Origin: Pseudomonadales bacterium
Lineage (GTDB): Bacteria; Pseudomonadota; Gammaproteobacteria; Pseudomonadales; Azotimanducaceae
DNA length: 64,000 nt
Assembly: GCA_019634925.1 (NCBI GenBank)
Contig: JAHCAL010000009.1
Span: 28-64,027 of the forward strand
Direction of reading: 5' to 3'
Below are positions 62,101 to 62,717 of this stretch, one piece after another; the stretch's first letter is position 1; each line of letters starts with the position of its first letter. The position numbers were made by a program, and so were the translations under genes. The notes below the pieces were generated by a model. The model was not told where the DNA came from and did not search any database. It was given only the letters and a program-made list of their open reading frames with translations.

Positions 62101-62132
62101 TCAGCCATTGCAATTCCTGGGGAGGGAGGGCA

Positions 62133-62261
62133 ATGCTGAGGCGGCTCACGGCTCACGGCTCACGGCTCACGGCTCACGGCTCACGGCTCACGGCTCACGG
62201 CTCACGGCTCACGGCTCACGGCTCACGGCTCACGGCTCACGGCTCACGCTTGCACGCGTAG
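62133..62261 (+). CDS. candidate microsatellite-encoded leader peptide (uORF), 42 aa at the present repeat number
   Basis: GGAGGGAGGG (62121-62130) then ATG 62133. Translates MLRRLT(AHGSRLT)4AHGSRLHA, with stop TAG at 62259-62261. Confidence 0.25.
   Translation: MLRRLTAHGSRLTAHGSRLTAHGSRLTAHGSRLTAHGSRLHA
62144..62248 (+). repeat. perfect heptanucleotide microsatellite (GCTCACG)x15
   Basis: Counted directly: 105 nt, 15 identical units, no interruption. Confidence 0.99.
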
Positions 62262-62375
62262 CGCGCTTTCCTCGATCCGGCGACCCTGCCGGATCTGGTT
62301 TTCCCCTGATCACCATTCTTCCGACGCCATGCCACGCATGGCGCCGTGCCTGCATTCGCCTGTGAGGATCAAAAC

Positions 62376-62717
62376 ATGAACGGACGCTGGTTCGCCCGCG
62401 TGCTGGCGGGGGTATGTGCGCTCGGGATATCGGCAGGCATCGCGGCGCAGTCCACGCCTGCGGATGACGACTTCGGCCACCGCGGTATGACTGTTGAAGA
62501 ACGCGCGTATTACACCGCGCAGCGCGAAGCCCTGGTCGCCTACGTGGAGTGCCTGAAGGCGCAGTACCAGGCGTCGCGTACGACTACGCCGACGAGTGCC
62601 GCCGACGCCTGTGGGTCGGAACGCACAGCGTACGCGGCGCGCCTGCCCGAGGATCTCGTTGGTCTCGAGCTCGACATCATCGATTACCGGGTCGCGCAGC
62701 GTCACGGTCTGGACTGA
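62376..62717 (+). CDS. small secreted protein of unknown function (113 aa)
   Basis: GAGGA lies 7 nt upstream of ATG 62376. Sec-type signal MNGRWFARVLAGVCALGISAGIAA-QS. The mature part is predicted helical with two Cys. I recognise no family. Confidence 0.7.
   Translation: MNGRWFARVLAGVCALGISAGIAAQSTPADDDFGHRGMTVEERAYYTAQREALVAYVECLKAQYQASRTTTPTSAADACGSERTAYAARLPEDLVGLELDIIDYRVAQRHGLD

Follow-up and report, generated by a model that had tools for sequence, protein, structure and literature searches.

Knowledge of simple sequence repeat (SSR) contingency loci comes mainly from host-adapted pathogens, in which such loci govern surface antigens. The opa genes of Neisseria carry CTCTT pentamer repeats within the region that encodes the signal peptide. 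In Haemophilus influenzae, lex2A is a short open reading frame (ORF) directly upstream of lex2B, and the dependence of lex2B on it may work by translational coupling. The SSR is carried by lex2A, and lex2B is listed as a glycosyltransferase (PMC3116884), but PMC6479036 instead names lex2A as a glucosyltransferase. In neuO, a heptanucleotide repeat lies within the 5′ part of the coding region, and the gene is ON only at unit numbers, n, divisible by 3; in E. coli genomes n ranges from 3 to 53 and 34% are ON (PMC13001214). Another heptamer tract, (ATCTTTC)n, sits in the 5′ untranslated region (5′UTR) of H. influenzae hmw1A (PMC12721329). We have analyzed a 64,000-nucleotide stretch from a Pseudomonadales bacterium (family Azotimanducaceae; assembly GCA_019634925.1, contig JAHCAL010000009.1, positions 28 to 64,027), referred to below as the window. 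It contains a perfect heptanucleotide tract, (GGCTCAC)x15, at 62143..62247 on the forward strand, ahead of an operon for a small secreted protein and an SpvB/Rhs-type toxin.

From its recurrence and its variation among related loci, we conclude that the tract element is a real, conserved and length-polymorphic contingency switch. The switch is of a known kind; new are the Rhs operon as its cargo and the window's architecture, in which the tract lies in an upstream ORF (uORF) and for which we infer the mechanism. The region is likely to be the control cassette of a phase-variable contingency locus, whose split form, found in the window, would gate expression through the position at which the uORF stops.

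By analogy, the closest precedent is neuO of E. coli K1 (CUS-3 prophage, unit AAGACTC). Common to both are a 7-nt unit, a tract just past the start codon, a full-length product in one of three phases, genomes in ON and OFF states, and a wide range of n (3–53 in neuO, 4–16 in the cassette family). They differ in unit sequence, organism and cargo, which for the cassette is a small secreted protein plus an Rhs toxin; furthermore, the version in the window is divided into a uORF and a separate gene, whereas neuO is not split. As in opa, the repeat precedes the hydrophobic core and cleavage site, which makes the mature product independent of n when ON, and several loci carry the same cassette. Unlike opa, the cassette family has a heptamer, a much longer N-terminal extension, and a conserved promoter and structured 5′UTR. 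The window shares with hmw1A a heptamer transcribed in the leader of the regulated gene and a structured leader RNA. In hmw, however, the untranslated tract supplies one arm of a long hairpin that RNase III cuts, with expression graded inversely to n, whereas the window tract is translatable, is not an untranslated hairpin arm, and has n mod 3 as the relevant variable. The lex2A/lex2B pair, with the SSR in one gene and the enzyme in its partner, resembles the uORF-plus-gene layout of the window, but its unit is 4 nt and no three-way stop geometry has been described for it.

A repeat-bearing cassette at the head of small-protein/Rhs operons

Homologues of the small secreted helical protein of the window (113 aa; 62376..62717, +) are rare. 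The tract lies upstream of those in contigs L002, L003, L126, L127, L128, L130 and L134, at protein identities down to ∼29%. L129 was left out because the contig starts downstream of the tract position. An outgroup, L131 (39% identity), also pairs a small-protein gene with an RHS gene; this pair has a Shine-Dalgarno (SD) sequence of its own and lacks a tract. In every fetched contig, down to ∼30% identity, the small protein is encoded directly upstream of an RHS-repeat gene. Six loci are complete, all metagenomic (the window, L003, L126, L127, L130 and L134). The promoter, the structured 5′UTR, a GGAGGGAGGG-type SD, the ATG and the tract were present in all six, with cargo proteins that are 29–60% identical. 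On this comparison, the cassette is the head of small-secreted-protein plus Rhs/YD operons in the six complete loci.

In the five complete relatives of the window, the ORF that begins at the cassette ATG is part of the small protein. One of three phases fuses it to the full-length protein in each locus. As assembled, L003 (14+2 units) and L126 (4 units) are ON and encode full-length proteins of 183 and 162 aa, the latter annotated by JGI as a single ORF from the cassette ATG (gene call P0005). The other three are OFF as assembled, and the addition of one unit yields 164 aa in L127 (4+1 units), 158 aa in L130 (9+1 units) and 175 aa in L134 (11 units). The off-frames stop 2–15 codons past the tract in L003, L126, L127 and L130; stops this early have a probability of 0.055–0.10 per locus and of ∼1e-4 to 1e-5 for these four together. 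In L134 they end ∼2 and ∼63 codons past the tract, with products of 30 and 87 aa. From the tract to the hydrophobic, signal-like segment, the gene frame of L126 and L130 contains no ATG, GTG or TTG; in L003 and L134 this stretch includes an ATG, but without an SD. One fusing phase, early off-frame stops and the absence of an alternative start with an SD therefore identify the cassette ATG as the start codon and the tract as intragenic. An earlier note, made from the window alone, had described the ORF as a leader; in these five relatives it is instead the N terminus of the small protein itself.

The tract also varies in length within a locus. L003 and L134 represent one locus from two samples, with the same neighbors and with 343 of 345 nt of the gene identical. 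Across 3.6 kb they differ by 66 mismatches in 3594 aligned columns (98.2% identical), and their sole multi-base indel, 31 nt at the tract and its junction, flips the gene from ON to OFF. Two further alleles, P0010 and P0030, are at least 90% identical and differ by 6 aa in the repeat-encoded segment; judging from its protein sequence, P0030 appears to be in the same OFF-phase frame as P0010. The assembled states of the complete relatives, 2 ON (L003 and L126) and 3 OFF (L127, L130 and L134), are close to the 1:2 expected of a free-running switch and similar to the 34% ON of neuO among E. coli genomes. At the level of sequence, anatomy and polymorphism together show frameshift ON/OFF switching at the 5′ end of the first gene. 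So read, the family is a case of classical intragenic SSR phase variation of the NeuO/Opa type on Rhs operons; it can be classed as such with one OFF phase of L134 running to 87 aa, and the window variant cannot. The earlier proposal that the repeat acts as an expression switch is thus borne out as far as a conserved, length-polymorphic tract heading small-protein/Rhs operons is concerned, but the five relatives switch by plain frameshift and not by coupling.

Upstream of the tract, the window has a sigma-70-like promoter, TTGACA-N18-CATAGT (62071..62100, +; score 10/12), with no second one in 1.3 kb, against an expectation of 0.1. The tract would therefore lie within a transcribed leader. The −35 hexamer, the ATAGT of the −10 box and the 18-nt spacing are invariant in five aligned loci, the first base of the −10 box being C or G, and the hexamers and spacing of L134 match by reading. 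The sequence of the spacer varies between loci. Retention of the hexamers alongside a varying spacer is the behavior that a real promoter should show. The distance from the −10 box to the ATG is 32–33 nt in the five tabulated leaders, and an invariant block, ATTGCA.TTCCTGGGGAGG..GGGCAATGCTGA, is common to the six complete leaders. Homology begins at the −35 box and the relatives' DNA beyond it is unrelated; the cassette therefore consists of the promoter, 5′UTR, ATG and tract. The possibility that the tract serves as an operator or spacer for the divergent helix-turn-helix (HTH) regulator of the window was rejected, given that the genes upstream in the relatives are unrelated and that homology starts at the −35 box.

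The SD-like sequence of the window, GGAGGGAGGG (62121..62130, +), is conserved in L003, L127, L130 and L134, and L126 has GGAGGAGGGG. It is predicted to fold into a 5′UTR stem-loop (62104..62136, +), in which UUCCU pairs with the SD and the basal stem, CAUUGC/GCAAUG, holds the AUG; the alignment shows this block to be invariant. The predicted energy is −14.7 kcal/mol for the window sequence (z −2.1) and ranges from −15.5 to −19.6 kcal/mol for L126, L130 and L003 (z −4.0 to −5.0). The SD/ATG block of the window is identical to the fused relatives at 33–35 of 35 nt. The same nearly invariant 35-nt block occupies 62104–62136 in the window, 2776–2808 in L003, 1109–1142 in L126 and 7997–8030 in L130, with cargo that is 29–60% identical. 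Conservation at this level suggests an additional regulatory input, such as a thermosensor, a protein or a small RNA (sRNA), and the predicted burial of the cassette SD and AUG in a stable conserved stem-loop suggests a further layer of control over initiation.

Two different Rhs loci, that of L003 (2749–2815) and L134 (7760–7835) and that of L127 (455–521), have an identical promoter spacer, TAGACCCCCACGCGCAGA, with small proteins of different subfamilies. Homology of L003 and L134 with L127 starts abruptly at GATCTTGACA; L003 and L127 come from the same metagenome. It looks as if the cassette has been exchanged or converted between Rhs loci. Because it is near-invariant while its cargo falls to ∼30% identity, and because the promoter spacer is shared, the cassette looks like a portable regulatory module.

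The split form in the window

Tandem Repeats Finder (TRF) reported the window tract as (CGGCTCA)x15.3 at 62142–62248, 100% perfect with a score of 214, which is equivalent to 15 units of GGCTCAC. A two-unit GGCTCAC pattern occurs 14 times in the 64-kb window, against 0.1 expected, and always inside this array. Among the metagenome matches listed, the tract is the longest of 106 complete GGCTCAC arrays. It begins 10 nt past ATG 62133, which GGAGGGAGGG precedes; its unit length is not divisible by 3, and it is open in all frames. At n = 15, the ORF that starts here (62133..62261, +) encodes 42 aa, MLRR(LTAHGSR)n...LHA, and is homologous to the N terminus of the relatives' small proteins.

Where this uORF ends depends on n. 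At n = 15 (n mod 3 = 0) it ends at TAG 62259–62261. One unit added in silico (n = 16, n mod 3 = 1) moves the end to TGA 62363–62365, within TGAGGA (62363..62368, +), where the stop overlaps the SD, GAGGA, of the gene at 62376. One unit removed (n = 14, n mod 3 = 2) moves it to TGA 62377–62379, which overlaps the start of the gene as ATGA. The stop for n mod 3 = 1 is thus a TGA 10 nt before the gene ATG and that for n mod 3 = 2 forms the ATGA; the stop at n = 15 neither overlaps nor abuts the start. These results reproduce the three phase-dependent stops (62261, 62365 and 62379) of the earlier note, whose coordinates for the SD (62121–62130), the ATG (62133) and the 15 heptamers all hold. Its stop position for n = 15 was also correct, and its distance of 115 nt from that stop to ATG 62376 becomes 114 nt.

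At n = 15 the leader frame is that of gene 62376, but it is interrupted by TAG 62259..62261 (+) and again by TGA 62307–62309, two in-frame stops that split the ancestral ORF. No phase fuses the tract ORF to gene 62376 in the window, and no phase yields a full-length product. The stretch between the two stops, when translated, resembles by eye the linkers of the fused proteins (LDPA...PAFAC), and the gene carries its own GAGGA-N7-ATG. L002, with a protein 54.5% identical, matches the window in both in-frame stops and their positions, in the 128 nt from tract to ATG without an indel, in an identical TGAGGA containing the TGA, and in the ATGA. In both sequences the gene frame runs into a stop after 4 codons, and the other two frames extend over 38 and 43 codons, as far as the start region. 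The perfect tract is retained in both lineages. From comparison with the relatives, we conclude that this split layout of the window and L002, with a uORF and a gene apart from it, is derived; its frame logic is the inverse of that of the relatives. The closest relative, P0002 (NCBI metagenome-assembled genome [MAG] protein KF911_06140, 87% identity), probably has the split form too, to judge from its Met-Asn (ATGAAY) start. For the geometry that the earlier note had required of homologous loci, the outcome is mixed: the SD and ATG are found in 6/6 complete loci, the three-stop/ATGA geometry recurs at identical distances in L002, and the uORF layout was seen just in the window and L002.

A TTG-initiated ORF of 85 aa overlaps the SD and tract in the +1 frame (window 62108–62365), and the JGI gene caller used the equivalent TTG as the start for P0010 and P0030. 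We rejected TTG 62108 as a real start; it lacks an SD and sits at the predicted 5′ end of the transcript, which is expected near 62107. The ORF is probably a gene-calling artifact of an OFF-phase locus.

The post-repeat leader (128 nt) is 78% identical between the window and L002, with no indels. By comparison, the gene is 64% identical, its third codon positions 48% and its four-fold-type sites 61%. Leader substitutions are distributed 6/11/11 by codon position, which is uninformative on coding. The predicted folds of both sequences comprise two hairpins and a UCCUC:GAGGA helix. The predicted anti-SD, UCCUC (62269..62273, +), pairs with GAGGA 62364–62368 in the minimum free energy (MFE) structures with a probability of 0.80 in the window and ∼0.5 in L002. 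Hairpin 1 (62274..62305, +) is a GC-rich, 9-bp stem followed by UGGUUUUCC; it is terminator-like (62274–62295, then TGGTTTTCC), starts 12 nt past the leader stop, and recurs in L002, where a compensatory swap has turned G.U into U.G. Hairpin 2 (62322..62346, +), with the core CGCCAUGC/GCAUGGCG, shows three double-sided compensatory changes relative to L002. In the two-sequence alignment, 96% of the 25 proposed leader pairs are paired, with 4 double-sided changes, compared with 28–42% paired and 0–1 double-sided changes in slid controls. No alternative antiterminator was identified in the window leader, and Rfam 15 returned only a chance sR4 match (E 0.73) across 61000–64000.

Proposed mechanism and its rivals

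Slipped-strand gain or loss of one 7-nt unit would put ribosomes that initiate at the cassette ATG into another frame. Where this ATG is the start of the small protein, as in the common form, one of three phases would make the protein and the other two would terminate soon past the tract. In the ON phase, translation across the gene may shield the operon transcript from polarity; in the OFF phases, polarity may act on the Rhs gene. The split form would have originated when two nonsense codons parted the tract ORF from the gene and the gene gained its own GAGGA-N7-ATG. Most likely, the repeat phase then decides where the uORF ribosome stops. With n mod 3 = 0, the state of the window, the ribosome would release 12 nt before the terminator-like hairpin and ahead of the anti-SD, the folded 114-nt leader would stay intact, and termination or a closed SD would result in low expression. 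With n mod 3 = 1 or 2, the ribosome would melt both hairpins and the anti-SD and terminate on the SD or the ATGA; the start site would be opened, and reinitiation would raise the output of the small-protein and Rhs genes to a high level. Attenuation would be a second route, compatible with coupling or unfolding. The logic would be inverted, in that the ancestral ON phase now ends early and the two ancestral OFF phases bring ribosomes to the SD or ATGA. Termination-reinitiation or UTR unfolding in the split form is plausible and a reasonable reading, backed by leader conservation and hairpin covariation. More tentatively, the window and L002 might represent an undescribed type of contingency switch, in which a tract turned uORF gates a structured leader by n mod 3, with inverted logic and two-in-three-ON or three-level control of Rhs expression, and in which the portable cassette (promoter, 5′UTR hairpin, ATG and tract) would be exchanged among Rhs loci of uncultured Gammaproteobacteria.

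A number of observations weigh against gating by the uORF stop, or against the switch as a whole. The stop geometry of the window has a chance of 0.017–0.022 for random leaders, which rises to 0.14–0.26 once the SD and ATGA are taken as given, and the ATGA is a trivial consequence of a Met-Asn start; by itself, the geometry is just marginally non-random. The split-form gene has a good SD of its own, which makes expression possible whatever the value of n. As for the predicted SD sequestration, its mean unpaired values of 0.09 and 0.11 are equaled by fractions of 0.18 and 0.29 of the shuffled leaders. The U-run of the terminator is weak, and in L002 weaker and degenerate. The covariation is based on two sequences, and 33 of 500 shuffles reach the same level. 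Tract lengths derive from metagenome consensus assemblies, in which long repeats can be miscounted, and three contigs, L001, L002 and L128, are broken within the tract; the numbers of units may thus be inexact. Finally, the fused forms have an extension of 20–70 aa before the signal-like segment, unusually long for a Sec signal.

The main rival for the window variant draws on some of the same facts. It holds that the gene escaped phase variation through its own SD and ATG, that the uORF and tract are leftovers, and that the leader is kept for some other purpose, such as transcript stability or a binding site. The GAGGA-N7-ATG of the gene, the two nonsense codons that interrupt the ancestral ORF, and the lack of significance both of the geometry given the SD and ATGA and of the SD sequestration are consistent with such a relic. 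We nevertheless consider it unlikely, since the tract has 15 perfect units, the longest among the matches listed, and is also retained in L002 despite synonymous sites near saturation; in addition, the cassette SD/ATG block is still 33–35/35 nt identical to that of the fused relatives, and the leader lacks indels and is better conserved than coding sequence.

A very improbable alternative is that tract length, not frame, grades expression through RNA structure, RNA processing or Rho loading, independent of leader translation. The tract does lie downstream of a promoter in the leader of gene 62376, its RNA is C-rich and predicted to be unstructured, and 5′UTR heptamer tracts grade expression in H. 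influenzae hmw1A (PMC12721329). Against it, an SD and ATG directly precede the tract in 6/6 complete loci, and the relatives use the tract as coding sequence with a frame-dependent outcome; with the tract included, the fold of the full leader is also no more stable than that of shuffles (z −0.09), unlike the long hmw hairpin. We give hardly any credence to an assembly artifact or to an incidental microsatellite that serves no biological function. Arrays of (GGCTCAC)n do occur commonly in metagenome contexts unrelated to the cassette, and assemblers break or miscount at such arrays (L001, L002 and L128), but the same cassette and flanks recur in independent samples and assemblies ahead of homologous operons, and the frame logic is non-random.

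Flanking genes, distribution and significance

The N terminus of the small protein encoded at 62376 is signal-peptide-like. The protein matched no Pfam or NCBIfam family, and an exact-protein look-up of the window sequence returned no match, nor did a look-up of P0002. Its AF2 model is a helical bundle, with pLDDT >90 for residues 40–112 and two invariant cysteines, and has no PDB fold match at E ≤ 0.001. The next gene (62755..64000, +) is the 5′ part of an SpvB-domain/Rhs-type toxin gene (SpvB, E 1e-4) that leaves the window; RHS repeats are present in the equivalent large genes of L002, L126, L127, L131 and L134. Past their main Rhs gene, L134 (13036–16297) and L130 (11387–15317) contain an Rhs-associated-core fragment and several short YD-shell/RHS fragments, which look like the usual orphan toxin-tip arrays of Rhs loci.

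Upstream of the cassette and divergent from it, the window encodes an HTH_3 regulator and a DUF6036 nucleotidyltransferase. The HTH_3 gene overlaps the nucleotidyltransferase gene (61047–61586) by 4 nt, giving a toxin-antitoxin-like pair. The HTH_3 (XRE) gene starts at 61921 on the minus strand, and a perfect palindrome, GGTATCC-TATT-GGATACC (61931–61948), ∼10 nt upstream of this start is probably its autoregulatory operator.

A protein-pattern scan of GTDB genomes found no relative, and a leader-motif scan gave two chance matches alone, both without the tract. A metagenome scan for (GGCTCAC)4 returned at least 120 stretches, nearly all in unrelated contexts; among the matches listed, the family member was L003. 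Arrays of (GGCTCAC)n and near variants (GGCTTAC, AGCTCAC and GGTTCAC) are widespread in unrelated metagenome contigs (L007, L044, L074, L077 and L092). These arrays often form an inverted pair, (CCGTGAG)n ... (GGCTCAC)n, around a short spacer, which is a different repeat architecture.

In a literature search whose candidates were mostly judged by title and abstract, no paper linked Rhs loci to SSR phase variation, and one candidate mentions Rhs in expression tables alone (PMC1574311). This agrees with the earlier statement that the mechanism is undescribed for Rhs/Tc loci. A heptamer switch at the head of Rhs/YD operons, in bacteria that are environmental and uncultured, would mean that stochastic bet-hedging also covers interbacterial or host-directed polymorphic toxins. 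The split form would offer a natural experiment, in which an intragenic switch evolves into a uORF-based one. If the cassette is indeed portable, it would provide for combinatorial, stochastic expression of interbacterial toxins.

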